Shown piece after piece: positions 1 through 63,764 of a stretch of DNA of 64,000 nucleotides. The stretch lies in IMG/VR virus record IMGVR_UViG_3300049185_000041; one strand, given 5' to 3'. The DNA comes from an uncultured virus (IMG/VR IMGVR_UViG_3300049185_000041) (taxonomy: Duplodnaviria; Heunggongvirae; Uroviricota; Caudoviricetes). Numbering within the stretch: position 1 is the stretch's first letter; each line of letters opens with the position of its first letter. The position numbers and the translations under genes are program-made. The notes beneath the pieces were generated by a model, which saw nothing but the letters and a program-made list of their open reading frames with translations, made no database searches and had not been told where the DNA came from.

Positions 1-271
1 GCCTAACACCCCCGCCACCCCGCCACCCTGTCACCCGATGCACCCGCCCCATCAAACCCGTGACGCCCAGGCGATCGAATACCTGGCCTCGCGCAATGCC
101 CTCTGGAAACTGTCAACGCCCGTGCCCTGCCTCTTCACAGGGGACCAGCGGCACGGGGAAGCCCTGAGACGGAAGCGCCGTGCAATGGCGTCCCGGTCTC
201 GACTCTCCGCGTGGGCGATCCCGTTCGCCTTTCTATCCTTGAACCGCTAACTACTAGAAACACCGTAGAAC

Positions 272-742
272 ATGAAACTTATCCTGGACTCATCCGCCCT
301 CCGGACCCTTCTGGAGTTAAACCCGGAACTCACCACGGAAATCAGCCAGTCGGTCGCGAACAGCTTCGCAGACCGTTACCTCAAACCGCTGGCCAAGATC
401 CCCGAGATCAAAGCCAGCCTCGACTCAGCGAAAGCCCACCTGGGCGACGCATTCCTTAAACTCCTCGAAGACCAACTCGGTTCGGTCGCCCGCCACTCGT
501 GGAGCAGGGAAATCCGGGCCATCCAACTCCGGCCCGAAGTGAAGCAGTCACTTGAGGAAGCAGCCATCCGAGGGCTCAGGGACCAGCTTGCCGAGATCGC
601 GGCACAGGCGGTCTCCAAGTTTTCTCTGGAGACCTTGGAGGCGGCAGTCGAATCCCGTGTCAACACGGAGATCGAAGAACGGGTGAATGCCGCGGTCGCC
701 AAGAAATTCGAAGCCATCGCAAGGGCAGCCACCACACCTTAG
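272..742 (+). CDS. hypothetical early phage protein (helical)
   Basis: 156-aa ORF with phage-typical codon usage, first of a tightly packed + strand run. Confidence 0.75.
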   Translation: MKLILDSSALRTLLELNPELTTEISQSVANSFADRYLKPLAKIPEIKASLDSAKAHLGDAFLKLLEDQLGSVARHSWSREIRAIQLRPEVKQSLEEAAIRGLRDQLAEIAAQAVSKFSLETLEAAVESRVNTEIEERVNAAVAKKFEAIARAATTP

Positions 743-746
743 CGCC

Positions 747-977
747 ATGCCCCACGAACCCCGCCTGAAAGGTCTCGCCGAACGCCGGGAAGCCCGGTTG
801 CGCGAGCGCCGGCAAGGCAAGTCCGGTCTCCTTGAACTCTGGAAAGTGCCGAAGGGTGAGAAACGCGAGGTCCACCGCGCCCGTGTGTTCTTCGCCACCT
901 TGCCACCTGACGACCTTCTCGCCGCCTACGCGGCGGTCACCAAAGCACTCGAACAACGAAAGAACGACACGCCATGA
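747..977 (+). CDS. hypothetical basic protein
   Basis: ATG at 747, in frame with ORF 687..977; ATGA overlap with next gene. Confidence 0.6.
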   Translation: MPHEPRLKGLAERREARLRERRQGKSGLLELWKVPKGEKREVHRARVFFATLPPDDLLAAYAAVTKALEQRKNDTP

Positions 978-1330
978 AACTCGACCCCAACAGCCCCACC
1001 TTCCCGGTTCCCAATGACGCCAATGTCAACGGGCAACCCGGTCTCCCGCTTCGCGCCCACTTCGCCGGTCTCGCGATGCAAGGTATGCTGGCCAACCCCG
1101 GCACCCTGGATGTCGGCGTTGAACAACTCCTCGTCCACGTCCCGGCGAATTCCGTCAGGATGGCCGACGCCTTGATCACCGAACTCAATAAGGACGCACC
1201 TCCGCCGCGGGAAGCCCGCGATGGTGAGGTCATCGGGTGGGCAGTGAAGCACGGCATCCGGGACCTCTCTAACAAGGACCTCCGGGCAGCCTTTGAAGCG
1301 GCCCGCAACCTCGACCTTAGCAAGCCATGA
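974..1330 (+). CDS. conserved small phage protein (GxxLRxxFAxxAMQG family)
   Basis: FPVP...GLPLRAHFAGLAMQGMLANP...MADALITEL resembles a widespread phage hypothetical family. Confidence 0.8.
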   Translation: MKLDPNSPTFPVPNDANVNGQPGLPLRAHFAGLAMQGMLANPGTLDVGVEQLLVHVPANSVRMADALITELNKDAPPPREARDGEVIGWAVKHGIRDLSNKDLRAAFEAARNLDLSKP

Positions 1331-1587
1331 AACCATATCGCCGCGGCATCTTCCGTGTCGTGAAGAACTTCACCGGCACCGGTTACTGGGTGCAGGCCAA
1401 CAGCGACACCTCAGGATGGGTGCCGATCATGCACCACGACTATCTCGGAAGTGCGAGACTCCGGGTGCGCAACCTCCATGCCGCCTGCTGTTCCATGGTC
1501 GAACTTGCGATGCAGCTTCCGCCTACGGCGCAGCGTTACATCAAGACCGGGAAGCTCCGGAAATCCAAGCCTAGCAAGAAGTCATGA
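1327..1587 (+). CDS. hypothetical protein
   Basis: ATGA overlaps at both ends. Confidence 0.65.
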   Translation: MKPYRRGIFRVVKNFTGTGYWVQANSDTSGWVPIMHHDYLGSARLRVRNLHAACCSMVELAMQLPPTAQRYIKTGKLRKSKPSKKS

Positions 1588-1868
1588 AAACCACCCCTGC
1601 CGCCGAGGCTGCCCGTCAGCGCACCCTCGACCTCATCGAGAGGGCACAGACCCTCCTCTACCAGGCCGCGCAAGCCGCCTGCCCGATCTTCCCGTGGGAA
1701 GACCAATGGACCGACATCGGCAACCACGCCGACGCCACGAAAGCCCTGTGGCACAGAATCAATCAGGCCCCTATGCCGGAGCGCCTTGACAGTGAACCTC
1801 GGAATGCTGCGCCGGTCTCGCCGCGGACCCCGATGGACCTGAAAGCTTCAACCGGGAGGGAAGGATGA
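1584..1868 (+). CDS. hypothetical protein
   Basis: ATGA overlaps at both ends. Confidence 0.65.
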   Translation: MKTTPAAEAARQRTLDLIERAQTLLYQAAQAACPIFPWEDQWTDIGNHADATKALWHRINQAPMPERLDSEPRNAAPVSPRTPMDLKASTGREG

Positions 1869-2062
1869 AATACTTGGTCTCTTACGCCTACCAAAGCGGA
1901 CAGTCTTTACCCGGAGGCCCGTTCTTGCAAATCGGCGACATGCTCACCTCCTACGACGGACCACTCGACCACGAGGGCATTGACGCAATCCGAAGTGCTG
2001 TCTTCCAGAAAGTAGGAGTCCGTGCCGCCATCATCGCCATCACCAAACTCGAAACGCCATGA
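1865..2062 (+). CDS. hypothetical protein
   Basis: ATGA overlaps; GGGAGGGAAGG upstream. Confidence 0.65.
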   Translation: MKYLVSYAYQSGQSLPGGPFLQIGDMLTSYDGPLDHEGIDAIRSAVFQKVGVRAAIIAITKLETP

Positions 2063-2571
2063 ATCCCGAACAATTCCGCGCCGCCGTTGAGCAGATCATC
2101 GGGGTGCCTCCCGAACAGACCGAACTGTTCTACGTGTGGACGCTTCACTTGGGCCCGTTCCCGGCACAGGTCATCTACCGGGAAGACGTGAAGGTCATCG
2201 AGATTCGCTGGAGTCAATACGTCCCGCGCCAACTGGACCAGTGGGGCGCGAACCCCTACAACGGGACGTGGCACATCTGGTTCAAGGACTTCAACAACGA
2301 CCCGGAAGCCGTGCTTCGCGAGCTTGCGCGTCGCTTGGCCAAGGCGGGCTATGATCCACCGGTCTCGCCGGCCGAAGAGAAGCCCGGCGTCCCGGTCTCC
2401 GGATGCGTCATCGGTCTCACCGAAGAGGAGCGCCTGACGCTGTCCCTCCTGCTGGACAAGCGGTTCCGCTATCGTGAGTTCTTCCACCAGAACGCCGGTC
2501 TCGCCGGTACGCAGGAACACGACACCGAGAGGACGCTGGGAGGCATCCGCGACAAACTGAAGAAGCTATGA
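2059..2571 (+). CDS. hypothetical protein
   Basis: 170-aa ORF, ATGA overlaps. Confidence 0.7.
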   Translation: MNPEQFRAAVEQIIGVPPEQTELFYVWTLHLGPFPAQVIYREDVKVIEIRWSQYVPRQLDQWGANPYNGTWHIWFKDFNNDPEAVLRELARRLAKAGYDPPVSPAEEKPGVPVSGCVIGLTEEERLTLSLLLDKRFRYREFFHQNAGLAGTQEHDTERTLGGIRDKLKKL

Positions 2572-2849
2572 AACCCCGCCACAACGAAGAACAGATCCAG
2601 CTCGGCATCGCCCTCTTCAAAAAGGTCTGCTCCGATGCGGTCTCCGCGAAGAACCCCGCCGGCCAAACCTTCTGGTCCGGACACCAGTGCGCCGGAGGCG
2701 GCGCTACCATCCGGCAGCGGCTCAACGAGGACACCATGACCCCGGCGAACGTCGCCCGGGAGTGCGACCTCAAGAGCATCCTGCGTCCGGCCAAGGCTGC
2801 CTACGAGGCGGCCATCCTCACCGCCACCAAGAAATTCCTGGGACAATGA
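2568..2849 (+). CDS. hypothetical protein
   Basis: ATGA overlaps. Confidence 0.65.
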   Translation: MKPRHNEEQIQLGIALFKKVCSDAVSAKNPAGQTFWSGHQCAGGGATIRQRLNEDTMTPANVARECDLKSILRPAKAAYEAAILTATKKFLGQ

Positions 2850-3283
2850 AACTCCGCGGCAAATGGGTCACCGTGAACTCGATCACCCGGTTCGTTCGCG
2901 ACCCGGATCCGATCAAGCCACGCAAGGCCCGGAAGCCGCGGAAGAAAAAGAAACGCCGGAAGCTCCGCCTCGATCGGATTCCCGGACGTCTCTACAGCGT
3001 CCAGCCGAAGGTCCACGCCTACCTCAAGGACCACAATCTCCTCGAACGCCGCCGGGCAGCCGGCGACTACGACACCCCGAAGCTCACCGCCTACGCCCTG
3101 AACCTCATTGCCGATCACGAGACCCCCGGCGACCTGCTCGTCAATCCACTGCCTTCCGGCTGCCGGATGAAGGGCTTCCAGGTCCCGCTCGAAGACAGTT
3201 CCTTCATTTCCTTTTACCTGCTCGGCAGCGCCACGGCTGCCGGGAACCCGCGCCGCCCGTGCGATCATTCGGGCATCTGTTAG
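2846..3283 (+). CDS. hypothetical basic, possibly DNA-binding protein
   Basis: ATG 2846 overlaps upstream TGA; K/R-rich tract KPRKARKPRKKKKRRK. Confidence 0.6.
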   Translation: MKLRGKWVTVNSITRFVRDPDPIKPRKARKPRKKKKRRKLRLDRIPGRLYSVQPKVHAYLKDHNLLERRRAAGDYDTPKLTAYALNLIADHETPGDLLVNPLPSGCRMKGFQVPLEDSSFISFYLLGSATAAGNPRRPCDHSGIC

Positions 3284-3285
3284 AA

Positions 3286-3621
3286 ATGAATACCATGAAT
3301 ACCACCGACATTGACATCAGCAAACTCGACAAGGCCGAAGTCCTTGCCGCCCTCTATAACAACAGCCGTCAGCAGGGCATGGGGTTCCTGCAATCCCGTG
3401 GGAGGGAGGGCATGACCGTTGAGCAGGCTCGCGAGGAGATCGTTGCCGCCAGCGGGATCAACCGTCGCGGCGAGCTGACTATCTGCTTCGACTACTTGAA
3501 CGGCCGGGTGATGAAGGTCGATATTGGCGGCGACACCCTCGCCCCTCACCTCTATGACCGCGACAACGGGCAGGGCGCTGCCGCTGCTGCATTGGAACCC
3601 TTGCTTGCCACCACCACGTAA
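3286..3621 (+). CDS. conserved phage hypothetical protein
   Basis: IDISKLDKAEVLAALYNNS..QGMGFL..FDYLNGRVMKVD..LYDRDNGQGAA resembles a recurrent viral family. Confidence 0.8.
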   Translation: MNTMNTTDIDISKLDKAEVLAALYNNSRQQGMGFLQSRGREGMTVEQAREEIVAASGINRRGELTICFDYLNGRVMKVDIGGDTLAPHLYDRDNGQGAAAAALEPLLATTT

Positions 3622-3642
3622 CATCTCTACATTCCTACACAC

Positions 3643-4017
3643 GTGAGCGCACGCATCGTCATTCCCCCCAAGCGTAGGGGCAACCCCGACTACGGGATCA
3701 TCGTCTCGCAAACCCAGGCGGGGAAGCCCACCTTCCGGCTGACGTTCCGCGAGGATGGCATCAAACGCACCTTCCTGCTCCGGGACGCCAAGACGATCGA
3801 GCAAGCCCGTGAACTGCGCGATATCTTCTACAAGAACCTCCGGCGCAAGTACGACGTCACCACCCGGGTCAAGCTCGGCCGCCCGGCCCGCCCGGGTCGC
3901 AAGGGCATCTACTACCGCAAGCCGTGGTACGTGAAGATCGACGGCAAGCAGATCGGCGAGTTCGACACCGAGGCGGAAGCGAAACAGGCCAAGGCCGCCT
4001 ACCTGAAAAACCGATGA
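3643..4017 (+). CDS. AP2-like DNA-binding domain protein
   Basis: C-terminal KGIYYRKPWYVKIDGKQIGEFDTEAEAKQAKAAY; N-terminal half also has an AP2-like beta-beta-beta-alpha pattern; GTG start. Confidence 0.6.
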   Translation: MSARIVIPPKRRGNPDYGIIVSQTQAGKPTFRLTFREDGIKRTFLLRDAKTIEQARELRDIFYKNLRRKYDVTTRVKLGRPARPGRKGIYYRKPWYVKIDGKQIGEFDTEAEAKQAKAAYLKNR

Positions 4018-4124
4018 ACTTCCTCCTCGACCTCTGGCAAGCCAACCAAGGGATCCTCTCGGCCGGCGGGATCGTCCTTGCCGTCGCAGCGGTCATGACC
4101 CTGAAGAACCCGGACAAGGTATGA
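4014..4124 (+). CDS. small single-TM protein (36 aa)
   Basis: MNFLLDLWQANQGILSAGGIVLAVAAVMTLK; ATGA overlaps on both sides. Confidence 0.5.
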   Translation: MNFLLDLWQANQGILSAGGIVLAVAAVMTLKNPDKV

Positions 4125-4309
4125 AAGAAGTGATTATCGTTAAACCGAAGCTCACGCATGCGCAGATCAACCTTCTCGTAGCCGTCAAGAAATGGATGGA
4201 CCGCATCGTTGACCGGATGCCCGAGCTGCCATCCTCGTTCATGGACAACACGGACCCGACGCCACTAGCGAAGGAGTTCAGAAAGCTCATCAAGGAACTG
4301 AAGCCATGA
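4121..4309 (+). CDS. hypothetical protein
   Basis: 62-aa ORF, ATGA overlap. Confidence 0.55.
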   Translation: MKEVIIVKPKLTHAQINLLVAVKKWMDRIVDRMPELPSSFMDNTDPTPLAKEFRKLIKELKP

Positions 4310-4429
4310 CCCCCAACCCGACCCCAGCGCCCCGGTCGACGCCATGCATGACCTAGCGGAAGCGTTGGAGGCGGAGAATCAAGCTCTACGCGCGGAGATA
4401 GAGAATCGAACGCCCAAGGACGAACCCTC

Positions 4430-5335
4430 ATGAACGGCCCCATCAATCTCGAAGAACTGCTGGTTCCCTACGTCAAGCCGCTGCCGAAATGCCACACCTG
4501 CGGCGAGCCTACCGCGCAGTTGTCCACGAACAAGAAGTGCCCGGCGTGCCTGGAGAAGCACATGGAGAAGATGCGCAATCGCAAGGGCAAGCCCAAGCGC
4601 CGCAAACCATCGGCGCTGGGCGCAGGCTACAAGCTCGCGTTCACCCGTTACCGCAGGCCGGTTCGCCATAAGACTCGGGGCTGGATCTACCGGTTCTTCG
4701 TCCGCAGGAAAGGGGAGACCGAGTATTACCCCGAGATCAAGGTCCTCGACGCGCTCACCGAGGAAGACGCCATCGCCGAGGTCGATGCGTTCATCACCCG
4801 ATCGCTCCTCGCCGGGGCCGTATGGCGCACGAGCCCGGACCAGTTGGACGAAAAGCTCCGGGAGGACTTCCGCCACCGCGAGAAAAACCTCTGCGACCAG
4901 GACGAGCACATCGAATCCTACCCGGTCAACGTCACCCGCTACAAGGTGGTCGTCGCCGGCAAGCTCATCCGCGATAACCTCACCTCACTGGAGAAGGCGA
5001 GGACGATCCGTGACGAGTACCTGCTCGGGGGTGAGCTGAACCCGTGCAAGCTCTGCGGCAAGCGGCCGAAGTGGCTGCCTGCGAGAATGGCCAAGGGGTC
5101 GTTCAGTTTGCGCCACCGCGAGCCCGGGTGCCCGAACCATTTCCACATCAAGAGCCCAGCGATCGACGCATCGTTCAAGGTGCGGGCGTGGAACCTACAC
5201 TTCTCTCAAGGAGAGGACCTCACGCGGAAGGGAGTCCTTGCCGCTGATGATTTGCGCCGGCTCGGCATCCTCGGGTTCAGTGGCAACAAGCGCCGGCGGA
5301 AGGTGCTGACCGAGGAGGAGGCCTTCGAGGTGTAG
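4430..5335 (+). CDS. Zn-finger / AP2-like nucleic-acid-binding protein
   Basis: CHTC..CPAC; RYKVVVAGKLIRDNLTSLEKARTIRDEY; LNPCKLCG (Lar-like Zn ribbon); ends EEEAFEV. Confidence 0.6.
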   Translation: MNGPINLEELLVPYVKPLPKCHTCGEPTAQLSTNKKCPACLEKHMEKMRNRKGKPKRRKPSALGAGYKLAFTRYRRPVRHKTRGWIYRFFVRRKGETEYYPEIKVLDALTEEDAIAEVDAFITRSLLAGAVWRTSPDQLDEKLREDFRHREKNLCDQDEHIESYPVNVTRYKVVVAGKLIRDNLTSLEKARTIRDEYLLGGELNPCKLCGKRPKWLPARMAKGSFSLRHREPGCPNHFHIKSPAIDASFKVRAWNLHFSQGEDLTRKGVLAADDLRRLGILGFSGNKRRRKVLTEEEAFEV

Positions 5336-5345
5336 CCTTTTTCTG

Positions 5346-5374
5346 TTGACCGTATCCTGCGAAACGTGCAGCGT
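5346..5374 (+). promoter_or_regulatory. sigma70-like promoter for the RNA gene cluster
   Basis: TTGACC-17 bp-CAGCGT (weak -10); predicted start near 5381 coincides with the 5' end of a structured RNA. Confidence 0.45.
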
Positions 5375-5380
5375 CCCGTC

Positions 5381-5451
5381 GCTCCGAATGCCCGGCCAGG
5401 GACTACATTCATTTGGCGAACCAACGTCTCGGCCACCTACTTGTCGGAGCA
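5381..5451 (+). ncRNA. candidate structured small RNA
   Basis: GCTCCGA/TCGGAGC closing stem, inner GGCC/GGCC and GGGAC/GTCTC helices, TTGG-CGAA-CCAA hairpin. Confidence 0.45.
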
Positions 5452-5459
5452 CTCTTTCA

Positions 5460-5521
5460 GATGACCTTCACCACTCCAGCTCCTTTTCGAGAGCGACCGC
5501 GACAACAGCGGTGAGATCATC
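5460..5521 (+). ncRNA. second candidate structured small RNA
   Basis: GATGA..TCACC pairs with GGTGA..TCATC; internal GCTC/GAGC hairpin. Confidence 0.35.
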
Positions 5522-5524
5522 CGT

Positions 5525-5598
5525 GGTCTCGTAGTGTAATGGTAGCACTGGTGATTTTGAATCACCCGGCCTTGGTTCGAAGCCAAGCGAGACTGCCA
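5525..5598 (+). tRNA. tRNA-Gln(TTG) with encoded CCA
   Basis: GGTCTCG/CGAGACT acceptor, GGTGA-TTTTGAA-TCACC anticodon arm, CTTGG-TTCGAAG-CCAAG T arm, G-CCA end. Confidence 0.92.
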
Positions 5599-5606
5599 CC
5601 TTCCAT

Positions 5607-5678
5607 GTTCCCATGGTGAAGCGGTTATCACCCCCGACTTTCTATCGGGTATCCCGGGTTCGAATCCCGGTGGGAATG
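5607..5678 (+). tRNA. tRNA-Glu(TTC), no encoded CCA, U at position 37
   Basis: GTTCCCA/TGGGAAT acceptor, CCCGA-CTTTCTA-TCGGG, CCGGG-TTCGAAT-CCCGG, discriminator G. Confidence 0.88.
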
Positions 5679-5687
5679 CTTTCAAAT

Positions 5688-5762
5688 CTGGACATAGCTC
5701 AGTTTGCGTAGAGCGCCTGCCTTGGGAGCAGGAGGCCGCGGGTTCGAATCCCGCTGTCCAGA
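5688..5762 (+). tRNA. tRNA-Pro(TGG), no encoded CCA
   Basis: CTGGACA/TGTCCAG acceptor, CCTGC-CTTGGGA-GCAGG, GCGGG-TTCGAAT-CCCGC, discriminator A. Confidence 0.92.
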
Positions 5763-5764
5763 CT

Positions 5765-6304
5765 TCAGTCCAGCCAGCTATCCTCCCGGACCCCAGTCAT
5801 CGCCCACACGGCTGCCTGCTGCAATTCACGCTTCCTCGCGAGGATTGCCCTCACATTCTCTGGCAACCACCTCTCACGGTTTCCTGCGGCCGAATTGTCC
5901 CCCTTCGGGATGACCCGGACATTAGTGTCCGTGTAGCCGCCCGCCATCAAAATCCGGTCCACGGTCAACCGTTCGGCTTCAGTCTCCGGCTGTTGGTCCC
6001 AGTAACCTGCCTCGTCGGTGATCTCCACGAACCGCTCGAAGCTCAGGGTGAACTCGATTTTCCGCCCTCGGGCATGGTCGCGAAGTGTGGCGAACGCCGC
6101 CTTCTTGCGGTCCCTCTTGCGCCACCGTTTTTGCCAGCAGCGATGGCAGAACCTCACCTCGCCAAGCTTCTTCTTCGGGCAAGCGTGGTGGTTCCGGCAG
6201 TGCTGGACCCAGCATAGCCCGGCTCCCGGGCGGCCCTTGAGCACGAACCCTTCGGATTCAACACGATCGCGGGCGGTCAGCGGTGTTAGGAGGGAGACGA
6301 CCAT
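5765..6304 (-). CDS. HNH-like endonuclease (DRI..GY..N type) with N-terminal Zn finger
   Basis: CWVQHCRN..FCHRC; HARGRKIEFTLSFERF; LTVDRILMAGGYTDTNVRVIPKGDN. Confidence 0.65.
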   Translation of the reverse strand: MVVSLLTPLTARDRVESEGFVLKGRPGAGLCWVQHCRNHHACPKKKLGEVRFCHRCWQKRWRKRDRKKAAFATLRDHARGRKIEFTLSFERFVEITDEAGYWDQQPETEAERLTVDRILMAGGYTDTNVRVIPKGDNSAAGNRERWLPENVRAILARKRELQQAAVWAMTGVREDSWLD

Positions 6305-6939
6305 GGCTTGAGGGTTGGGTGAAAATAGACGCGGGAGAAAAGCAGCAGGTCATACTTCGACCCGAACGCCGTGTGACCCGGCTGCCCGGCGACCATCTCC
6401 ATGAGGGCCTTCTCCGGGACATTCCGGTAGCCGTCGCAGTAACCCTTCCTCCGGTAGCCCTGCCGCTCGCCCGCGGGACCCTGTGGCACGTTCTGCCGGA
6501 GTTCGTGCTTCTGGGCCTCTTCGTCGATCACGGCGGCCGGCAGCACGAGGATGGTGTCGAGGGTGTCCGCCATCACGTTCCAGACGTCGGCGAGCCGCTT
6601 CTGGTTCGTGCAGCGGTGGATCCCGATCACGTAGACCAAGGGCACCCCGCACTTGCGGTCCTTCTCACGTCGCCATTCATAGGTCGGGAGCTTGTTGCCC
6701 TGCCGCAGCGACTTGATCTCGCAGAAGAAGTCCGAGGGCTTATGATGCGCGTCGAACACGCAGTCGTGAGACCCGGAGTTCGGGATGTCTGTTAGGCCGA
6801 GCAGCTCGATGATGATTTCTTCGACGACTTTTCCGTAACGGGTTCTGGCTTCACCATTCTTGGTGAGCGGTTTGTCGGGCAGCACGTCGAGGAGGAGGGG
6901 CTGCTCATGCGACGGCGGGGGCTTGATCGAGAGACTCAT
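6286..6939 (-). CDS. PD-(D/E)XK restriction-endonuclease-like protein
   Basis: YGKVVEEII...VFDA...FCEIKSL matches the E..D..EXK arrangement. Confidence 0.6.
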   Translation of the reverse strand: MSLSIKPPPSHEQPLLLDVLPDKPLTKNGEARTRYGKVVEEIIIELLGLTDIPNSGSHDCVFDAHHKPSDFFCEIKSLRQGNKLPTYEWRREKDRKCGVPLVYVIGIHRCTNQKRLADVWNVMADTLDTILVLPAAVIDEEAQKHELRQNVPQGPAGERQGYRRKGYCDGYRNVPEKALMEMVAGQPGHTAFGSKYDLLLFSRVYFHPTLKPWSSPS

Positions 6940-6956
6940 GGCGTGATATACTAGGT

Positions 6957-7298
6957 TTATAGTAATTCCTCAGCCAGCAACAACGTGTTCCCCTCCGGCA
7001 CCTGCCCGGCAGCCACGGCGACCGCTGCGGCATCGGCCCGCGTGTGGAAGGTGCCCCGGCTGTCCAAAAACCCGCTCTCGAAGTCGTGCGGGTTCTCCAT
7101 CGGGTGCATCTGGGAGAGCATCACCGGGTCGCCGTGGCGGACGCTCGCGATGATCCGGGTGGGGTATTTCAAGTGCCGGAGGGCGGCGCAGACGATGCGC
7201 AACGGGCGCTTGTGAATAAGCGTGGAGGAGTTGTGAATAACTCCGGAGGGCGTTGATCCACAAGGCGTGTCTTCGGATTTTGGGGGTGCCGTTTGCAT
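6957..7298 (-). CDS. conserved phage hypothetical protein
   Basis: IVCAALR..SVRHGD..M..GFLDSRGTFHTRADA..AGQV..LAEELL resembles a recurrent phage family; start uncertain. Confidence 0.7.
   Translation of the reverse strand: MQTAPPKSEDTPCGSTPSGVIHNSSTLIHKRPLRIVCAALRHLKYPTRIIASVRHGDPVMLSQMHPMENPHDFESGFLDSRGTFHTRADAAAVAVAAGQVPEGNTLLLAEELL
7211..7262. promoter_or_regulatory. cluster of DnaA-box-like 9-mers
   Basis: TGTGAATAA (rc TTATTCACA, fits TTWTNCACA) at 7211 and 7232; TGATCCACA at 7254 (opposite orientation, 1 mismatch). Confidence 0.45.
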
Positions 7299-7314
7299 TG
7301 TGATATTGCGGGGA

Positions 7315-7343
7315 AGCTTAACCCAGTGGAAAGGTCGTGCCAA
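7315..7343 (-). promoter_or_regulatory. leftward sigma70-like promoter
   Basis: TTGGCA-17 bp-TAAGCT on the minus strand upstream of 7298. Confidence 0.45.
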
Positions 7344-7478
7344 GGCAATCTAATCGCCTGTGACCATTACGGGGTGAAGGCTTACCCCTAGCAGAATTTC
7401 CGGTCAACTCGCAAATTTGAGAATGAAAAATCTTGCGCGTTTGCAGGCTGCGACGTAACCAATGCGCCGCGCTGCGTT

Positions 7479-7736
7479 ATGCGAACCCTCCCGATAGACC
7501 AGAAAATCCGGCAGTTGATTTCGGCAAGTCCCTTATCTATCAAGGACATCGCCGACGGAGCCGGGGTGAACTACAAGACCCTCTGGCGTTTCGCCGAAGG
7601 ACGCACCCCGACCATCAACGCGGTGTCCGCGGAACTCCTGTTCCACTTCTTCAATGGCCGTACATTTTCAGAGCCGGGCAAGCCGCTTCGCCGGGCACCC
7701 TTCATCGTTCGCAGAGGGGAGGGCAAAGCCGCATGA
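7479..7736 (+). CDS. XRE/Cro-type HTH regulator
   Basis: LSIKDIADGAGVNYKTLWRFAEG HTH; heads the replication operon. Confidence 0.8.
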   Translation: MRTLPIDQKIRQLISASPLSIKDIADGAGVNYKTLWRFAEGRTPTINAVSAELLFHFFNGRTFSEPGKPLRRAPFIVRRGEGKAA

Positions 7737-9340
7737 TCCTGCCCCTGTTGGACGATGTTTTCTGGGCGGCCCTGGCATCCCGGAAGCCCGTGCGATACCT
7801 CTCGCTATGCTCCGGGATCGAAGCGGCCACGGTGGCATGGCACCAGTTCGGTTGGCAGCCTGTCGCCTTCTCCGAGATCGAACCTTTCCCTTGCGCCGTC
7901 CTTGCGTACCACTGGCCACATGTTCCGAACCTCGGCGACATGACCCGATGGCGTGAGTGGCCGGAGGAATTGCTGGCGCAGGTCGATGTCCTTGTTGGAG
8001 GGACGCCATGCCAGGCATTCTCGGTCGCCGGGCTCCGGAACTCCCTCGCCGATGAGCGAGGCAATCTTACCTTGATCTATGCACACCTCCTCGACCACCT
8101 TGATGAAATCCGCCAGCGGCGAGGGCTGCGCCCCGTCATCTGCGTGTGGGAAAACGTTCCCGGAGTCCTCTCCACCAAGGACAACGCCTTCGGATGCTTT
8201 CTCGGAGCGTTGGCCGGAGAAGACGATGCACTTGAGCCGCCAGGGAAAAGATGGACGAACGCTGGTCTTGTGTCCGGACCCCAAAGGTCAATCACGTGGA
8301 GGGCCCTCGACGCCCAATACTTCGGAGTGGCCCAACGCCGCCGTCGTGTGTTCCTTGTCGCAAGTGCTCGAAACGACTTCAGTCCCGAAGAGGTTCTTTT
8401 TGAGTCCGACGGCGTGCGCCGGGATTCTCCGCCGAGCCGCGAAGCGCGGGAAGTCGCTCCCACCATCCCTGCACGCAGCCTTGGAGGCGGAGGCCTTGGA
8501 ACGGACTTCGACTGCGATGGCGGAGTCGTGAAGTGGCCTGTCGAAGTAGCGCCTACGCTCAACGCACACTTCGGGGAAAAGCAGGGTCTTGAAGACCAAC
8601 ATGCCTTCGGCGGCGGCTTGTTTGTCCCCGACACCGCGCATACCCTGCGCGGTGAAGGGTTCGATGCGTCCGAGGACGGAACTGGAAGAGGGACTCCACT
8701 GGTGCCCGTGGCTTTCGCCAACCAAGGAAACTTCGGCGTCCTCAAAGAGGTTTCAGTTAGCGATCCGATTCGGGCCAAAGGCGGCGACACAGGAGGAGGA
8801 GGAGAGTCCTTGATTGCTTTCTCCTGCAAGGACCACGGAGGTGATGCTTCCGAGATCGCCCCGACACTCCGCAGCATGGGCCATCACGGAAGCCATCCGA
8901 ATGGTGGTGGGCAGGTAGCCGTGGCTTTTGCTGCCACCGATTACAAGGAGGGTAAGTTCGAGGAAGTCGAACAGGCCCGACCGCTGACGACGACGGCAGA
9001 CCGAACGCGGGGCGCACCAATCACCCTCGCTTTTAAACCCGGGCAATCTGAAGCCGCAGGCGGAACCTTTGTGACCGAGGAGTTCGCGCCGACATTGCAA
9101 GCCCAGAACAATGGCTCAACGGCAGTCCCGGCAATTTCACGGGCCTCCGCTGTCCGCAGACTCACCCCGACCGAATGCGAACGACTCCAAGGCTTCCCTG
9201 ACAACCACACGCTGATCCCGTGGAAAAAGAAGCCCGCCAGCGCGTGTCCTGACGGCCCACGCTACAAGGCGCTCGGGAATTCCATGGCGGTTCCTTGCAT
9301 GGCGTGGATCGGAAACCGAATCGCCGCCAATCTCCCATGA
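7733..9340 (+). CDS. dcm: DNA (cytosine-5)-methyltransferase with expanded repetitive variable region
   Basis: Motif I SLCSGIEA, IV GGTPCQAFS, VI WENVPG, VIII QRRRRVF, IX RRLTPTECERLQGFPD, X KALGNSMAV. Confidence 0.93.
   Translation: MILPLLDDVFWAALASRKPVRYLSLCSGIEAATVAWHQFGWQPVAFSEIEPFPCAVLAYHWPHVPNLGDMTRWREWPEELLAQVDVLVGGTPCQAFSVAGLRNSLADERGNLTLIYAHLLDHLDEIRQRRGLRPVICVWENVPGVLSTKDNAFGCFLGALAGEDDALEPPGKRWTNAGLVSGPQRSITWRALDAQYFGVAQRRRRVFLVASARNDFSPEEVLFESDGVRRDSPPSREAREVAPTIPARSLGGGGLGTDFDCDGGVVKWPVEVAPTLNAHFGEKQGLEDQHAFGGGLFVPDTAHTLRGEGFDASEDGTGRGTPLVPVAFANQGNFGVLKEVSVSDPIRAKGGDTGGGGESLIAFSCKDHGGDASEIAPTLRSMGHHGSHPNGGGQVAVAFAATDYKEGKFEEVEQARPLTTTADRTRGAPITLAFKPGQSEAAGGTFVTEEFAPTLQAQNNGSTAVPAISRASAVRRLTPTECERLQGFPDNHTLIPWKKKPASACPDGPRYKALGNSMAVPCMAWIGNRIAANLP
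8079..8531 (+). CDS. nested alternative-frame ORF inside the C5 MTase (EcoHK31I beta-subunit-like)
   Basis: SEWPNAAVVCSLSQVLETTSVPKRFFLSPTACAGILRRAAKRGKSLP in the +1 frame. Confidence 0.55.
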   Translation: MHTSSTTLMKSASGEGCAPSSACGKTFPESSPPRTTPSDAFSERWPEKTMHLSRQGKDGRTLVLCPDPKGQSRGGPSTPNTSEWPNAAVVCSLSQVLETTSVPKRFFLSPTACAGILRRAAKRGKSLPPSLHAALEAEALERTSTAMAES

Positions 9341-11913
9341 GCACCCCCATCTATTTCGGCGGCAATGGCGTCCGCGGAGGCCGGATTCGGCGGCTCAATG
9401 CCTCGACGTTCAAGGAACTGGTCGAGCGTTACATCTACATCCCGGTTTCTTTCCCGCTCACCCGGCAGGAGTTCTTCGCGCTGCCGACGGACAAGGACCG
9501 CGATGAGCGGAAGGATGGCCCCTACCTCGTCTGCTCGTCCTACCCATTCGACGAAGGCCACCGCGAGGACGACACCGCGACGTCCTTTCACATGGTCGTG
9601 CTCGACCTCGACGAAGGTGAGTTCGTGAAGGACTTCTTCGAGTCACCCGAGACCCTCGGCGAGCATCTCTTCCCCTACAATTTCACCGCGTTCACGACCG
9701 CGAAGCACACCAAGGAAAAGCCGCGGCTGAAGGTCCTGATCGACGTTCACCCCAGCCATCCGTCGCTGCACCGGAGGTTCGTGAAGTTCTTCCTCCAGCG
9801 GCTCGGTCTGCCGGACACCTTCAAGGGAAGCCGGGAATCAAAGACGCTCTCACTCCCGCAATATCGTCCCCTGGTTTTCAAAGGTGAATCGCCGTCGGCG
9901 GTGATCGCGGCACGCCTCGACGGCATCGCGGCCCGCGAGTCCGACCTGCCGGATGAAGAGGACGAGAACAACGAGGAGTTCTTCGGCCGCACCTATGCAT
10001 TCGATCGCGAGGACGGAGACGACGAGATCGTGAGCCTCGCCTATCTGCCGGTCGCAGGCCTCACGGTCGATGACATCCGCGAACCGCTGTCGAAGATCGA
10101 CCCGGACTGCGAGTATAAGCTTTGGTACGAAACCGCGGCGGCTCTACGCCACCAATTCGTCGAAGAGGAAGATGCCCGCGAGGCGTTCGAGCTATTCACG
10201 GACTGGTCCTCGGCGGGGGTCAAGTTCCAAGGCCGCAGGGATTGCTGGACCAAGTGGAAATCGTTCCGCCCGGTGGCCAAGGGCCGCGCCCCCATCACCA
10301 TTCGTTCGCTGTTCAAGGCCGCGATGGACGCTGGCTGGGAGAACATCAAGATCGCGAAGAAGATCCAGCAGACCGTGCTCGAATGGCTGGAGTCGTGCAA
10401 CGACCGCGACGAGCTGATGCAGGAAGGGGCGAAGCGCATCGCCGCGATGCCGTTCAAGAACGACGTGGTATCCGAGTCGCTGACGGTCGCATGGCGCAAG
10501 CGCATCAAGGCGGTCTGTGACGAGGACATCGACAAGGCCACGCTCAAGAAGGAAGTCTCGAAGATCCTGAAAAAGGAAGCTGCCGCGAAGCAGGAGCAGC
10601 ACCGCGGGCATCTCGACGGCTGGCTCCAGCCGCAGGTGTTCCTCGCCGTCGACGATGTGTTCCATGACTGCTCGTCCGGCGTGGCGCTCAAGCCCGGTGC
10701 CTTCGACCGGAAGTTCGAGAAAGAGCTGATGCCGAAGGAAGAGACGCCCGCCAACGGCAAGCCGATCATGGCACCTTCGGCGTACGCGCTCAACGTCATG
10801 AAGATTCCCCGGGTGGACCGGAAGATCTATTGCCCGCTCAATGCCGGCGACGACTCGATCGTCGAGATTGACGGGCACCTCTTCCTCAACACCTACGATC
10901 GCAACACGATCCCCGTCGAGGACCCCGAACACGCGACAAGGGCGTCAGAGCTGTTCATCGCCCACGTCACCCATCTCGTCGGTGCGGAATACCTCGGAGG
11001 CATTCTCGACTTCATCGCGGTGCAGGTTCAGTTCCCCGGCCGCAAGATTTTGTGGCTGCCGCTGATCCAGTCAGCCGAAGGTGTCGGCAAGGGCCTTCTC
11101 GGCAAGGTCCTCGCACGGGTGCTCGGTGTCGGCAATGTGAAACTGGTGTCGCCGGAAGTGATTCGTGATCGCTGGAACGACTGGCAAATCGGGGCTCAGG
11201 TCGTGATCCTCGAAGAGGTCCACTTCCCCGGCGAGCGCCGCGAGGCGGTGATGAACAGCCTCAAGCCCTTCATCACCGATTCGATCATCACCATCAACCA
11301 GCGCCATGTGTCCGCGCGGAACGAACGCAACTACGCAAACGCCTTCGCTTTCACCAACTACAAGGACGCACTTCACCTCAAGGGACCTGACCGTCGCTGG
11401 CAGGTGATCTTCTCCCCGCTCCAAACCAAGCAGCACGTCCTCGACCTCAACGCTACCGGCCACTTCGAACGCATGGAATGGCTGCTCACTCCGGACGGTG
11501 CCGGCGGCCTCCGCTACTGGCTGAAGAAACGGAAGATCGCCACGGATTTCCCCTTCAACGGGCCAGCCCCGATGACGAAGTTCCGCGCCGCCGTAATCGA
11601 GGAATCCAAGAGTCCGCTGCAAATCCAGATCGAGGACCTGATCGAGGATGCCGTGGACCCGCTGATCGGCCGCGAAGTGATCCATGTCGGCCGCCTGGTC
11701 GAACTGGTGGCGCGCGGCAGGCATTCTGATGCGACGCGGGTGCCACATGTCCTGTCGACGATGGGGTTTGAGAAATACAGCAGCGACCGGGTAAGCTTGG
11801 ATGGCTCAAGGGGCTGCCTGTACACCCACGCCGAAGCATGGAAAAACGGCGTGCCGCCAACGGATTTCCTCAAGGCCAAGCTCCGCGATTTCGAAGACGG
11901 ATTTCTTCTCTGA
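9337..11913 (+). CDS. primase-helicase (primase-like N-terminus, PriCT-2, SF3/DUF5906-type helicase)
   Basis: VLDLDE; IDPDCEYKLW..FTDWS..KWKSF; QSAEGVGKG Walker A; VILEEV; FTNY. Confidence 0.85.
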   Translation: MSTPIYFGGNGVRGGRIRRLNASTFKELVERYIYIPVSFPLTRQEFFALPTDKDRDERKDGPYLVCSSYPFDEGHREDDTATSFHMVVLDLDEGEFVKDFFESPETLGEHLFPYNFTAFTTAKHTKEKPRLKVLIDVHPSHPSLHRRFVKFFLQRLGLPDTFKGSRESKTLSLPQYRPLVFKGESPSAVIAARLDGIAARESDLPDEEDENNEEFFGRTYAFDREDGDDEIVSLAYLPVAGLTVDDIREPLSKIDPDCEYKLWYETAAALRHQFVEEEDAREAFELFTDWSSAGVKFQGRRDCWTKWKSFRPVAKGRAPITIRSLFKAAMDAGWENIKIAKKIQQTVLEWLESCNDRDELMQEGAKRIAAMPFKNDVVSESLTVAWRKRIKAVCDEDIDKATLKKEVSKILKKEAAAKQEQHRGHLDGWLQPQVFLAVDDVFHDCSSGVALKPGAFDRKFEKELMPKEETPANGKPIMAPSAYALNVMKIPRVDRKIYCPLNAGDDSIVEIDGHLFLNTYDRNTIPVEDPEHATRASELFIAHVTHLVGAEYLGGILDFIAVQVQFPGRKILWLPLIQSAEGVGKGLLGKVLARVLGVGNVKLVSPEVIRDRWNDWQIGAQVVILEEVHFPGERREAVMNSLKPFITDSIITINQRHVSARNERNYANAFAFTNYKDALHLKGPDRRWQVIFSPLQTKQHVLDLNATGHFERMEWLLTPDGAGGLRYWLKKRKIATDFPFNGPAPMTKFRAAVIEESKSPLQIQIEDLIEDAVDPLIGREVIHVGRLVELVARGRHSDATRVPHVLSTMGFEKYSSDRVSLDGSRGCLYTHAEAWKNGVPPTDFLKAKLRDFEDGFLL

Positions 11914-12829: not shown

Positions 12830-13384
12830 ATGTTAGAACAAACGCTCGCCTCCATCGCCGAGGCCATCAACCGCCAAGCCGCCGCCGTCGAAGCCTCCAA
12901 CAAACTGATGGAAGCGGTCCTCGCGTCCCGCGAAGCCGCCGCCGGGAACGTCGTTCCGCTGAAGTCCGCCGCTCCGAAGGAAGAGATCACCGAAGAGACC
13001 GTGCCGACGAAGGTCGCCCCGGCAAAGAAGGCCGGTCGCCCTGCGAAGGCCGCTCCGGCTGCCGAAGAACCGGCACCGGAAGAGGTCGAGATCGAGACCC
13101 CGGTCGCCGCCAATTCGGCATCCAACAGCGAAGCCGGCGACGATCGCCCGGATGTCGATGAGTTCGAGGATCCGGCTGAAGTCACCGCCATCCTCACTGC
13201 CGCGGTCGATGCCGCGAAGAACGGCGCTGCCAAGGCCGGCGACAAGCGCGCCGCGTACATGGCCGCCTTCGAGGACACCCGCGTGAAGCATGGCATCGCC
13301 AAGGGCGAACGCCCGTCGACCGTGATCAAGACCCTCGCCGCCGCACGTGCCTTCAAGGCCGCCATCGAGGCGATTGCCGTCTGA
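12830..13384 (+). CDS. Ala/Pro/Glu-rich protein typical upstream of phage Cas4-like/SSB/polA modules
   Basis: N-terminal helix, low-complexity linker, C-terminal helical domain; strong codon bias. Confidence 0.75.
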   Translation: MLEQTLASIAEAINRQAAAVEASNKLMEAVLASREAAAGNVVPLKSAAPKEEITEETVPTKVAPAKKAGRPAKAAPAAEEPAPEEVEIETPVAANSASNSEAGDDRPDVDEFEDPAEVTAILTAAVDAAKNGAAKAGDKRAAYMAAFEDTRVKHGIAKGERPSTVIKTLAAARAFKAAIEAIAV

Positions 13385-13404
13385 CCGATTTCGCGTCACC
13401 CGAC

Positions 13405-13520
13405 GTGTCCGCCCAACGGAACCAGCGCCAGCCCACCGTGCGCCCCGAGGGTTCCCCGCAAGGGGGTTCATAAGCTAGGTCCCGGCTCCGAGGACTTCAG
13501 AACGGTAGGATCGGGCGGCC
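13405..13520 (+). ncRNA. candidate structured intergenic/leader RNA
   Basis: CCGCCC/GGGCGG closing helix, ACCGT/ACGGT, CCCC-GCAA-GGGG GNRA hairpin, GTCC/GGAC. Confidence 0.4.
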
Positions 13521-13539
13521 CATTTTCACGCCTACAATC

Positions 13540-14532
13540 ATGAAAGCCAAGACCATCAAGTCCAACATCCGTGCCAAGATCAACGAGTGGTTGGCCACCG
13601 TGCCCGAGGAGAACGGCCTCCGCGATCTCCTCGCCAAGAACATCATTGTGACCGGCGGGAGCATCGTCTCCATGCTGACCAACGAACGGGTCAACGACTA
13701 CGACATCTATTTCCGCACGCATGCCGCCGCGCTGGCCGCTGCCAACCACTACGTCGAGCGGTTCAAACTGAACCCGCCCCCGACCTTCAAGGACCATCAG
13801 CAGGAGATCGACATCCGCGTCGACCCGACCGATCACCAGGAGTGCGTGAAGATCGTCATCAAGAGCGCGGGCATTGCTTCCGAAGCGGCCTCGGCCGAGG
13901 ACAACAGCGGCTACGAGTATTTCGAGGCCCTGCCGGATGAAGTGGGCGAGGAATATGCGGGTCGCATCATGGACAACGTCACCGCTGCCGATGACATCGC
14001 GGTGACCTCGATCACGAAGCCCGAAGGCGATGGCAAGGCACCGTATCGCCCTGTCTTCATGAGCGCGAACGCCATCACGCTCGCCAATGGCATCCAGCTT
14101 GTGATGCGCTTCATTGGGGAACCCGAGGTGATCCACAAGTTCTACGACTTCGTCCACTGCACCTGCTACTGGTGCTCGTGGGACGGCAAGCTCGAACTCC
14201 CGGCAGCCGCGCTGGAGGCGATCATCACCAAGGAACTCCGGTACGTCGGAAGCCGGTATCCCCTCTGCTCGATCATCCGCATCCGGAAGTTTGTGGCGCG
14301 GGGTTGGTCGATCAATGCGGGCCAGATACTCAAGATGTGCTGGCAGCTCGCCGAACTCGATCTGAAGGACATCAAGGTTCTCGATGACCAATTGACCGGC
14401 GTGGATGCGCATTACTTCCGCCAAGTGATTGCCCGGCTTCAGGAGAAGCAAGACGAGGCCATTGCCGCCGGGGAGGAACCGAAGCCGATCGACGGCACCT
14501 ACCTGATGACCATCATCGACCGCATGTTCTGA
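13540..14532 (+). CDS. Pol-beta-superfamily nucleotidyltransferase (polyA/CCA-adding-like)
   Basis: VTGGSIVSML..VNDYDIYF (hGG..DxD) and later YDFVHC. Confidence 0.7.
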   Translation: MKAKTIKSNIRAKINEWLATVPEENGLRDLLAKNIIVTGGSIVSMLTNERVNDYDIYFRTHAAALAAANHYVERFKLNPPPTFKDHQQEIDIRVDPTDHQECVKIVIKSAGIASEAASAEDNSGYEYFEALPDEVGEEYAGRIMDNVTAADDIAVTSITKPEGDGKAPYRPVFMSANAITLANGIQLVMRFIGEPEVIHKFYDFVHCTCYWCSWDGKLELPAAALEAIITKELRYVGSRYPLCSIIRIRKFVARGWSINAGQILKMCWQLAELDLKDIKVLDDQLTGVDAHYFRQVIARLQEKQDEAIAAGEEPKPIDGTYLMTIIDRMF

Positions 14533-16044: not shown

Positions 16045-16154
16045 TAGATTCTAACCCCGGGTCGCCCTTCAGGGCGATCCTATGACCCGCACGGCACCGC
16101 GGGCAGCATAAATCAGGGCCATTGCAGATACGAAATCCGAAATACGAAAATACC

Positions 16155-16721
16155 ATGAGTGCATTGCAAGAAGGTCAAGTCCACATCCCCGAAGGTCGTC
16201 TCAGCTATCCGAAGCTATATGAGCCGAAGGCAGCCAAGGGAGACCCGAACTCGAAGCCCCGGTATGGTTGCAAGATCCTGATCCCGAAATCGGATGAGGC
16301 GACCAAGGCGAAGATCGACAAGGAGATCGCCCGCCTCATCAAGGCCCACCTCAAGGGTGTGAAGCCGAGGTCCTCCGCCCTGCCCATCGTTGATGGTGAC
16401 GGCGAGGACGGCGACGAATACTCGAAAGGGCATTGGGTCCTGAGCGCCAACCGCGCGCAGTCCCAAGGACCTCCGCAGGTCGTCGACCGGCAGAACAAAG
16501 CCATCGACTCGAAGAACGCGAGCACCGTTTACGCCGGCTGCCACTGCGACTTCATGGTCGGCTTTTTCTTCCAGTCGAACTGGGGTCGCATCTGCTGCGG
16601 CCTTGAGATCGTTCGGAAGAAACGCGACGGCGAATCGTTCGGCGCGGCCCGGCAGGCCGCCGAGGAAGTCATGCCGGAACTCCCGGACGACGAAGAGGAG
16701 GAAGCCGGTTTCGGCGTCTGA
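16155..16721 (+). CDS. single-stranded DNA-binding protein (DUF2815/gp2.5-like)
   Basis: RLSYPKLYEP..YGCKILIPKSD..DGDG..PQVVD..VYAGC..DGESFG; acidic tail. Confidence 0.85.
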   Translation: MSALQEGQVHIPEGRLSYPKLYEPKAAKGDPNSKPRYGCKILIPKSDEATKAKIDKEIARLIKAHLKGVKPRSSALPIVDGDGEDGDEYSKGHWVLSANRAQSQGPPQVVDRQNKAIDSKNASTVYAGCHCDFMVGFFFQSNWGRICCGLEIVRKKRDGESFGAARQAAEEVMPELPDDEEEEAGFGV

Positions 16722-16746
16722 TCCCATCCGGATCGTGAATTGACCC

Positions 16747-16779
16747 GCCTCCGGCTGCCTCGTGCGGCCGGAGGCTTTC
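16747..16779 (+). terminator. hairpin terminator after SSB
   Basis: GCCTCCGGCTGC-CTCGT-GCGGCCGGAGGC-TTTC. Confidence 0.55.
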
Positions 16780-16789
16780 GGGTGCAAGG

Positions 16790-57329: not shown

Positions 57330-57340
57330 ATCTGTGAAAA

Positions 57341-58573: not shown

Positions 58574-58575
58574 CG

Positions 58576-61656: not shown

Positions 61657-61659
61657 GGG

Positions 61660-62909: not shown

Positions 62910-62950
62910 GGCCGTAAATGTGTAGCGATGTAGCCGCCGGGTCAAGTATC

Positions 62951-63752: not shown

Positions 63753-63764
63753 GGTGTTGGTAGA

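Follow-up and report, generated by a model that had tools for sequence, protein, structure and literature searches.

A strand-polar CGGTCTC word array within the small genes of an uncultured tailed phage

Why does a run of small phage genes carry the same short word many times over, nearly always facing the same way? The question is raised by a 64,000-nucleotide (nt) stretch of DNA from the virus record IMGVR_UViG_3300049185_000041 (the window, by which we mean this whole stretch). The window comes from a tailed phage, uncultured and of ~62% G+C, and between its positions 195 and 2644 GGTCTC occurs 13 times on the plus strand and once on the minus strand. A sequence-only reading of the window had noticed this cluster and had offered several explanations, among them a Chi-like site near a genome end, loading sites for a protein, an antitermination signal and a decoy array for a restriction enzyme. 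We find a real, strict and polar word that is selected at the nucleotide level, is common to relatives of the phage and occurs also as a non-coding tandem array. As to what reads it, we tentatively favor a polar operator that would be bound by a protein of the phage.

A strict word written by synonymous codons

Every copy listed by the sequence-only reading was found where that reading had placed it, the reverse copy at 629 included (Table 1). About one copy had been expected by chance, and the density elsewhere in the window indeed predicts 0.90 per strand. The whole window holds 55 copies of GGTCTC (34 plus, 21 minus) against 52.9 by shuffle; the total equals the expectation, so the excess is purely local. 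Among strand-specific hexamers, GGTCTC ranks first for local clustering in the window, with 13 of its 34 plus-strand copies lying within 2.5 kb (Poisson scan statistic p 1.9e-9). Outside the cluster it is neither depleted nor enriched: across 41.9 kb of reference genes the sense strand carries 11 copies (12.4 +/- 3.4 expected) and the antisense strand 17 (19.8 +/- 3.5 expected). The polarized local cluster that had been described is thus borne out by the 13:1 strand ratio here, by the neutral remainder of the window and by the co-oriented copies in two relatives, L005 and L038 (see below).

The word is longer and stricter than GGTCTC: it is asymmetric and exact over 7–8 base pairs (bp). In the cluster region CGGTCTC is observed 11 times where 0.31 copies are expected, and CCGGTCTC 8 times where 0.04 are expected; the remaining 61.3 kb of the window contain a single CCGGTCTC, on the minus strand at 45660. 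The base 5' of GGTCTC is C in 11 of the 13 copies, as had been counted before, and CC precedes it in 8 of the 13; the base 3' of it is G or C in 11. No enrichment is seen in the cluster region for any of the 18 variants that differ from GGTCTC by a single base. The copies are irregularly spaced, 19–747 bp apart over 2.45 kb of coding DNA, and are densest at 2361–2497 (four in 137 bp). The 12-mer CCGGTCTCGCCG occurs at 1812, 2359 and 2495 and at no other place, as the earlier reading had it, and the flanks of the other copies are unrelated.

This strictness bears on a restriction-related explanation, under which the copies would together act as decoy or target of an enzyme of the Eco31I/BsaI type (GGTCTC) or the EcoP1I type (AGACC), or would hold the sites of the phage's own methyltransferases. 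GGTCTC is the Eco31I/BsaI recognition site, the phage encodes two DNA methyltransferases (C5 and N6/N4), and several distant relatives (L022, L024, L091 and L009) have no GGTCTC in 15–21 kb against 4–6.5 expected. Selection is not limited to the six bases of that site, however, as the preference for C and CC before it makes plain, and the window as a whole is neutral for it. The shorter GGTCT occurs 14 times on the plus strand and 7 times on the minus strand of the region, so that orientation would give no protection from a Type III (EcoP1I-type) enzyme, and a cluster of sites has no known benefit. We therefore regard the decoy array of the sequence-only reading as a poor fit, and any restriction-related function as extremely unlikely.

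All 13 copies are intragenic and fall in 8 of the 9 small plus-strand open reading frames (ORFs) of 38–2849; the eight of 272–2849 are without known function. The copies had been assigned to eight ORFs and two reading frames. The ORF count holds, whereas the frames are three: Gly-Leu (GGT CTC) and Val-Ser (G GTC TCN) account for six copies each, and Arg-Ser-Arg (CGG TCT CGA) for one. Two codon-aware null models, each of 5000 trials with the protein sequences held fixed, were compared with the observed count. When synonymous codons were permuted within the region, the mean was 1.90 copies (standard deviation 1.27, maximum 8); when codons were drawn according to their usage in 28 further window genes, the mean was 1.57 (maximum 7). 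Neither model reached 13 in any trial, and the enrichment thus persists under the codon-preserving null that the sequence-only reading had proposed as a check. The choice of codons is seen directly in the two main amino acid pairs. Gly-Leu is written GGTCTC in 6 of 7 cases in the region against 4 of 75 in the 28 reference genes, and Val-Ser is written GTCTCN in 6 of 6 cases, all of them after G, against 13 of 59. The array is a product of nucleotide-level selection acting through synonymous codon choice; the earlier suggestion of a signal at the nucleic acid level is upheld by these nulls (1.6–1.9 against 13 copies) and by the occurrence of the same pattern in relatives.

Could the cluster nonetheless be without function, a by-product of composition, amino acid content or shared ancestry? 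High-G+C coding DNA does have heavy-tailed k-mer statistics, and the hexamer ranked second for clustering, AAGCTC (p 3.4e-7), is a by-product of this kind: it is an ordinary codon pair, Lys-Leu written AAG CTC, with 9 of 10 clustered copies in that single frame of called ORFs and without an extended consensus. The GGTCTC word differs in being used in three frames between flanks that are unrelated except for the 12-mer, and it turns up again in relatives, both within genes that are not homologous and as a tandem array in non-coding DNA. With the codon-aware nulls, the arrays of relatives and the tandem array taken together, absence of function is close to refuted and retains next to no probability.

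Several further observations concern the small genes themselves. Those at 974, 1327, 1584, 1865, 2568 and 2846 begin with ATGAAA, the start overlapping the preceding stop (ATGA); CATGAAAC is itself enriched in the small-gene region of the window, and the style of gene start is alike in L038 (ACCATGAAA) and L079 (TTTATGAAA). A terminator-like hairpin, GAGATCGC...GCGGTCTC followed by CAAGTTTTCT, lies at 593–615 on the plus strand inside ORF 272–742, and its 3' arm is the word copy at 610.

The word in related phages

Relatives were sought mainly through the primase-helicase of the phage. A word-indexed search gave 91 homologues, and the loci around 31 IMG/VR and 74 metagenome relatives were compared. 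Neither the primase nor the product of ORF 2059–2571 gave a match when scanned singly against IMG/VR, and a scan of a genome collection gave four weak loci only. The cultured-phage collection holds no close relative, with no DNA match to positions 1–4200 and with polymerase relatives below 30% identity.

Two of the closer relatives carry comparable arrays. L005 (primase 60% identical) has CGGTCTC on the plus strand at 143, 259, 475, 1020, 2476 and 2822 and none on the minus strand of its first 2.9 kb (6:0 in 1–2900, expected 0.31, P 9e-7). L038 (primase 57% identical; 58% in its near-duplicate L042) has five plus-strand copies and no minus-strand copy between 2606 and 9917 (5:0 in 2400–10000, expected 0.81, P 1.5e-3). 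The strand ratio of GGTCTC is 7:0 in L005 and 8:1 in L038, and the gene chains lie on the plus strand there too. Both arrays are upstream of the primase gene, and both relatives have the same G+C content (62%) as the window. Because 9 of the 14 window proteins of 38–5335 have no tblastn match in any relative locus compared, these arrays stand in largely unrelated genes.

Where genes are shared, the fate of single sites can be followed. The L038 homologue of ORF 38–250 retains CGGTCTCG with its rare TCT codon although both flanks have diverged. In the family of ORF 747–977, site 771 is found at the homologous place in L005 and L006; the homologous place in L038 reads GGAGCTGG, and a copy is present ~30 nt upstream instead. 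Judging from these comparisons, the word behaves in shared genes as a selected site, with turnover. Relatives of 50–54% G+C (L007, L009, L040/L041 and L049 among them) almost lack the word.

The word takes a different form in G004, a distant relative (primase 41% identical, 57–58% G+C, 43.6 kb). Here 13 copies of CGGTCTC are packed into 150 bp of non-coding DNA. Eight adjoin one another with a spacing of 8 bp, and after these come three 16-bp units CGGTCTCGCCGGTCGA; Tandem Repeats Finder describes the array with a period of 8 and 15.1 copies. It starts ~20 nt past the lone sigma-70-like site found in that intergenic region (TGAACA-17-TATACT) and lies upstream of a same-strand chain of small genes, in the same orientation as those genes. 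The 12-mer CCGGTCTCGCCG of the window is the start of the G004 16-bp unit, and the closest match to the whole unit in the window is listed in Table 1.

How widespread such arrays are was approached with two patterns. The exact 24-mer tandem array was found in IMG/VR in G004 only. A gapped three-copy pattern was found at no fewer than, that is at least, 119 loci, most of them with a period that is a multiple of 3, which suggests coding repeats. Among the gapped-pattern loci listed, a clear homologue of a window protein was found in L160 only (a 765-residue structural protein, 32% identity, E 2e-113); in the non-coding DNA of L160, a distant relative, stands an 8/16-bp array built of ACCGGTCTC-type units. 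Two others, L135 and L185, have weak replication-protein matches to the window (~25%).

Contiguous direct repeats call to mind the iterons of a replication origin, and the words could be iterons or loading sites that mark an origin zone for the primase-helicase which the phage encodes (PriCT_2 plus a D5-like helicase). The origin of satellite phage P4 contains short repeated octamers, and the parvovirus Rep protein binds tandem repeats. The likeness to such origins of superfamily 3 (SF3) helicase initiators, the P4 alpha octamers and the parvovirus Rep repeats, is that the repeats are short, direct and, in G004, contiguous, with a D5-like primase-helicase encoded nearby. The G004 repeats are moreover followed by a moderately A+T-rich stretch, as in an origin, no protein is better conserved among all the word-bearing phages than the primase-helicase, and the window has its own denser group of four copies at 2361–2497. 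The 13 irregular sites dispersed over 2.45 kb of coding DNA do not look like an origin, however. No A+T-rich unwinding element adjoins the window cluster, the G004 array alone has the look of packed repeats, and dispersed iterons need no uniform orientation relative to genes such as is seen here. L007 argues in the same direction: its primase is equally similar (58% identical), yet the word is absent, with 0 plus-strand and 2 minus-strand copies in 22 kb. An iteron function is thus decidedly unlikely in our view, although the G004 array may conceivably serve the primase-helicase as an origin.

Two side observations belong with the arrays. Beside the tandem array of G004 (minus strand of L111, 2460–2800), CCCCTGTTAGA(G/T)GGTCTCC occurs twice and CC(C)(T)ATACTATGGNCGG twice, and these extra elements have the look of additional control sites between the genes there. 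L118 (IMG/VR, 110,308 nt), an unrelated record of 64% G+C, has CGGTCTC copies at 2035–9481, with 21 on one strand and 3 on the other in 11.5 kb and with runs at 13-bp spacing, and may be another user of the word.

Table 1. Coordinates of the word array and of the genes discussed with it (positions in the window)
Feature	Position	Strand	Remarks
Polar (C)CGGTCTC array	195..2644	+	GGTCTC starts 195, 610, 771, 825, 1040, 1067, 1814, 1876, 2361, 2394, 2413, 2497, 2639
CCGGTCTC starts	193, 823, 1038, 1065, 1812, 2359, 2392, 2495	+	8 copies
Lone reverse GGTCTC	629..634	-	Forms with the copy at 610 a 6-bp inverted repeat, 13-nt spacer
16-mer CGGTCTCGCCGGCCGA	2360..2375	+	15 of 16 positions match the G004 unit CGGTCTCGCCGGTCGA; single close match in the window, anecdotal
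Small ORF with site 195 as CGG TCT CGA	38..250	+	Conserved in L038/L042, 58.6% identity
Chain of 8 small ORFs with stop/start overlaps	272-742, 747-977, 974-1330, 1327-1587, 1584-1868, 1865-2062, 2059-2571, 2568-2849	+	Word in 7 of 8
Candidate reader, 124 aa (amino acids), two beta-sheet-plus-helix modules, Arm/AP2-like	3643..4017	+	Profile and model matches, weak
Second candidate reader, 301 aa	4430..5335	+	Weak Arm/AP2-like family profile match, E 5.6e-4, profile positions 34-111
Primase-helicase (PriCT_2 + DUF5906)	9295..11913	+	Query for relatives; candidate reader if the words are iterons

How the word might be read

The position of the array in the phage genome bears on a Chi-like function. 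DNA near-identical to the window occurs in contigs from several runs recorded as soil metagenomes, those of four runs being 100% identical. In one contig of 75,102 nt (run X1), window positions 1–4000 lie at 66274–62275, which leaves 8,828 nt upstream of window position 1. Because the contig extends upstream, the "first 2.7 kb" to which the sequence-only reading had confined the cluster reflects the start of the window and not a genome end, and its placing near such an end is not supported. L038 likewise has more small plus-strand ORFs upstream of the homologous gene. The last ORF of the window is cut at 64000, and no long repeat joins the two ends of the window.

Under a Chi-like function, a RecBCD/AddAB-type nuclease of the host would recognize the word in one orientation, and this would protect phage DNA or stimulate recombination. 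A short, exact, asymmetric, co-oriented and clustered word in coding DNA, with none of 18 variants enriched and a 13:1 strand ratio, is what one would look for, and the word is common to the relatives of 62% G+C and absent from those of 50–54%. It is also the pattern published for phages LLS and MD8 (PMC12315714): the terminally clustered Chi of LLS, MD8 and P1 resembles the present word in being exact, short, asymmetric, co-oriented, over-represented, intragenic and locally concentrated. The differences are that here no known genome end is near, that a relative carries a contiguous array in non-coding DNA and that the phage has an exonuclease of its own. A contiguous 8-bp tandem array such as that of G004, at 57–58% G+C, would have no role under Chi. 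The Chi-rich lambdoid phages have, according to the same source, no recombination functions of their own, whereas this phage encodes a PD-(D/E)XK exonuclease. In 401 Actinomycetota genomes, 15 of them unpublished, CCGGTCTC is commonly 2- to 10-fold above its reversed control, a crude control applied without taxon labels and not informative on the host; an excess that is phylum-wide points to composition and not to a species-specific signal. The Chi-like site of the earlier reading is thus a poor fit, and we consider it very improbable.

The word may also be an antitermination-type or other RNA-level signal. The (C)CGGUCUC of early transcripts could be bound by an RNA-binding protein, a nuclease or a small RNA of phage or host, which would shut off, stabilize or time the messages. 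T4 RegB acts on GGAG in this manner, and TRAP acts on tandem triplets in a leader. Sense-only orientation would then be automatic (13:1, 7:0 and 8:1 in the three phages), and the sites are indeed independent of frame and irregular in spacing. The G004 array would lie within a transcribed leader if the promoter-like site is real, and a strict match of 7–8 nt resembles a seed or a single-stranded recognition site. The 13 sites share no RNA structure, however, their mean pairing probability being 0.66 against 0.59 +/- 0.23 at random positions, and neither an RNA-binding protein nor a complementary small RNA was identified. The sense word is not depleted elsewhere (11 against 12.4), so that stray copies in other messages are not selected against. 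Reading at the RNA level is in our judgment unlikely.

A strict asymmetric unit, uniform polarity, interchange between a leader array and scattered copies and conservation across G+C content together point to a reader conserved in the clade and to a directional process. By analogy, we consider it possible, though short of probable, that the word is the binding site of a sequence-specific factor kept by the clade, most likely a polar, stoperator-like operator that would be read by an Arm/AP2-like protein of the phage. "Protein loading sites" come nearest to this among the suggestions of the sequence-only reading; the polar, selected word shared with relatives agrees with that suggestion, and a reader can be proposed only as a candidate. 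A small two-domain phage protein, for which the product of 3643–4017 is the candidate, would bind each asymmetric word as a monomer. As the words face with transcription, RNA polymerase would be stopped or slowed by the protein on its way through the run of small genes, and these genes would be switched off as a unit, as in the cluster A mycobacteriophages. These genes are probably expressed early, given their position upstream of the replication genes. In G004 a single dense tandem array, placed shortly after a promoter, would have the same effect, whereas in the window phage and its two closer relatives the words are scattered through coding sequence by synonymous codon choice. We infer in this scheme the reading on DNA, the identity of the reader and the transcription block alike.

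The model for such a switch is found in the cluster A mycobacteriophages. According to PMC9283540, their monomeric repressor has two DNA-binding domains and binds more than 20 asymmetric 13-mers, the stoperators, whose orientation correlates with transcription and whose reversal abolishes repression. The present array resembles these stoperators (L5 gp71 and the TipsytheTRex repressor being the readers described) in the many copies of an asymmetric word, in an orientation tied to transcription and in having a two-module candidate DNA-binding protein encoded beside the array, where the cluster A reader is a monomer with two DNA-binding domains. It differs in that stoperators are 13 bp long and genome-wide and that their reader combines a helix-turn-helix with a Stoperator domain, whereas our word occupies ~2.5 kb and the candidate is Arm/AP2-like. 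Cluster A phages are temperate; among the window proteins scanned, there are no lysogeny genes.

The candidate protein belongs to a family of 266 members at E ≤ 1e-3 (profile search of 1.84 billion representatives) that is found beside the arrays in the window, in L005 (two copies), in L038 and in G004; no member was found for L007, L012 or L160 in their records, and a word-indexed homologue search returned its own cluster only. When 75 family members were scanned at E ≤ 0.01, AP2 was matched by 8, Arm-DNA-bind_3 by 4 (best E 1.4e-6) and Arm-DNA-bind_4 by 1. An AlphaFold model from a six-sequence alignment (predicted local distance difference test score, pLDDT, 75.6) shows two modules, each a β-sheet and then a helix, with a disordered linker. 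Its top fold match among 48,161 chains is 3jtz_A, the arm-type binding domain of HPI integrase (Z 5.2, root-mean-square deviation 2.9 Å, 56 residues), and the arm domains of lambda integrase and a GCC-box domain follow at Z 3.8–4.3 (1z1b, 2wcc and 2gcc among the matches). Arm/AP2-type domains read short asymmetric sites as monomers, which would suit an 8-bp word and a 16-bp double unit. The arm-type sites of tyrosine integrases and the GCC-box sites of AP2/ERF proteins are likewise short and asymmetric, bound by a three-stranded-sheet domain as a monomer and present in multiple direct copies, and the candidate resembles these domains, if weakly (Z 3.8–5.2); here there is neither an integrase catalytic domain nor an attP context. 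The proposed link of the protein to the word is a lead and not a result. The product of 4430–5335, a second candidate, has homologues in L005, L006, L038 and L061.

Several points weigh against an operator read by this protein. All 13 copies lie within ORFs, in contrast to stoperators, which occupy promoters and the short gaps between genes, and the core is 7–8 bp and not 13. Every gene of the cluster is on the plus strand, so that reading on DNA and reading on mRNA are indistinguishable. In G004 the promoter match is weak, with 1 site found against 0.7 expected, and the small genes downstream of the array contain no sense-strand copies of the word. The assignment of the candidate is also weak: its match to Pfam Arm-DNA-bind_3 (E 0.018) falls short of the cut-off, Foldseek found nothing for the model at E ≤ 0.001, and the fold scores of the predicted structure, at most Z 5.2, are too low to prove an Arm/AP2 fold and do not reach the level at which an arrangement common to many proteins could be dismissed. 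Finally, the family is present in L049 and L040/L041, both with 0 CGGTCTC; having a family member is thus no predictor of the word, and specificity would have to differ between members.

Genomic surroundings and meaning for phage gene timing

Besides the primase-helicase (PriCT_2/DUF5906), exonuclease (DUF2800) and methyltransferases, the phage encodes a family A DNA polymerase and a helicase. Promoter and terminator scans of positions 1–8000 and 56000–64000 and of L038 stayed at chance level. Three tRNA genes at 5525–5763 (plus strand; Gln-TTG, Glu-TTC and Pro-TGG) all serve codons that end in A, a sign that the host may exceed the phage in G+C content; the tRNA-Gln gene begins GGTCTCG. The large terminase (58615–61656, minus strand, 1013 residues) contains Hint and homing-endonuclease domains as an intein-like insert, and a 2398-residue protein (25254–32450, minus strand) has only a weak GNAT-like match, with a comparable 7.5-kb ORF in G004 (12998–20584). 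Several palindromic hexamers are nearly missing from positions 1–64000 (GGCGCC 2 against 113, CTCGAG 0 against 87 and CAGCTG 0 against 47.5 expected from an order-3 Markov model); this near-loss is a strong avoidance of restriction sites, and relatives are similarly depleted of GGCGCC, GCCGGC, CCGCGG and CGATCG.

Relatives also vary in features of their own. In the distant relatives L022, L024/L087, L091, L009, L049 and L081 (14–21 kb), GGTCTC and its complement stand at 0–1 copies against 4.3–6.5 expected; in L008/L047 and L061, by contrast, each strand has about 2-fold more copies of the hexamer than expected. The top words of L007, L012 and L032 were considered as dispersed arrays and proved to be simple tandem repeats. 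Tandem repeats upstream of the primase genes of these relatives are non-homologous, with units of 17 bp (L007, 1–145), 6/9 bp (L012, 15–130) and 24 bp (L032, 4138–4360); those of L007 and L012 are at the contig start, and in IMG/VR the record of L007 (G410) is listed among those with direct terminal repeats. Runs of (TCCAA)n stand between the genes of L006 at 13 places in 511–4010, on one strand only and several of them directly before gene starts; they look like a repeated leader or promoter element and not like a dispersed array. Some plus-strand sites grouped near the close of record G001 were rejected as a continuation of the array, as these are antisense copies within a conserved late gene.

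What the array means for phage biology can be stated in steps. A strict regulatory word can be held by selection within coding sequence, across three frames and in genes that are non-homologous between related phages. Such arrays should not be taken for Chi by default. Until now the stoperator principle has been known from a single group of temperate mycobacteriophages, whose sites are intergenic and 13 bp long; should the reader prove to be a phage protein that halts transcription in one direction, the principle would extend to uncultured soil and freshwater phages, to another DNA-binding fold and to intragenic sites. The 8-bp word and the 124-residue protein make a concrete pair for a test. 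It is conceivable, if doubtful, that the array represents an undescribed class of lytic-phage switch, in which asymmetric 8-bp words, set into the first-expressed genes by synonymous codons, would be read by two-module Arm/AP2-type proteins that stop RNA polymerase in one direction, with leader arrays and scattered words freely swapped between relatives. If true, this would be a general and overlooked layer of phage gene timing.

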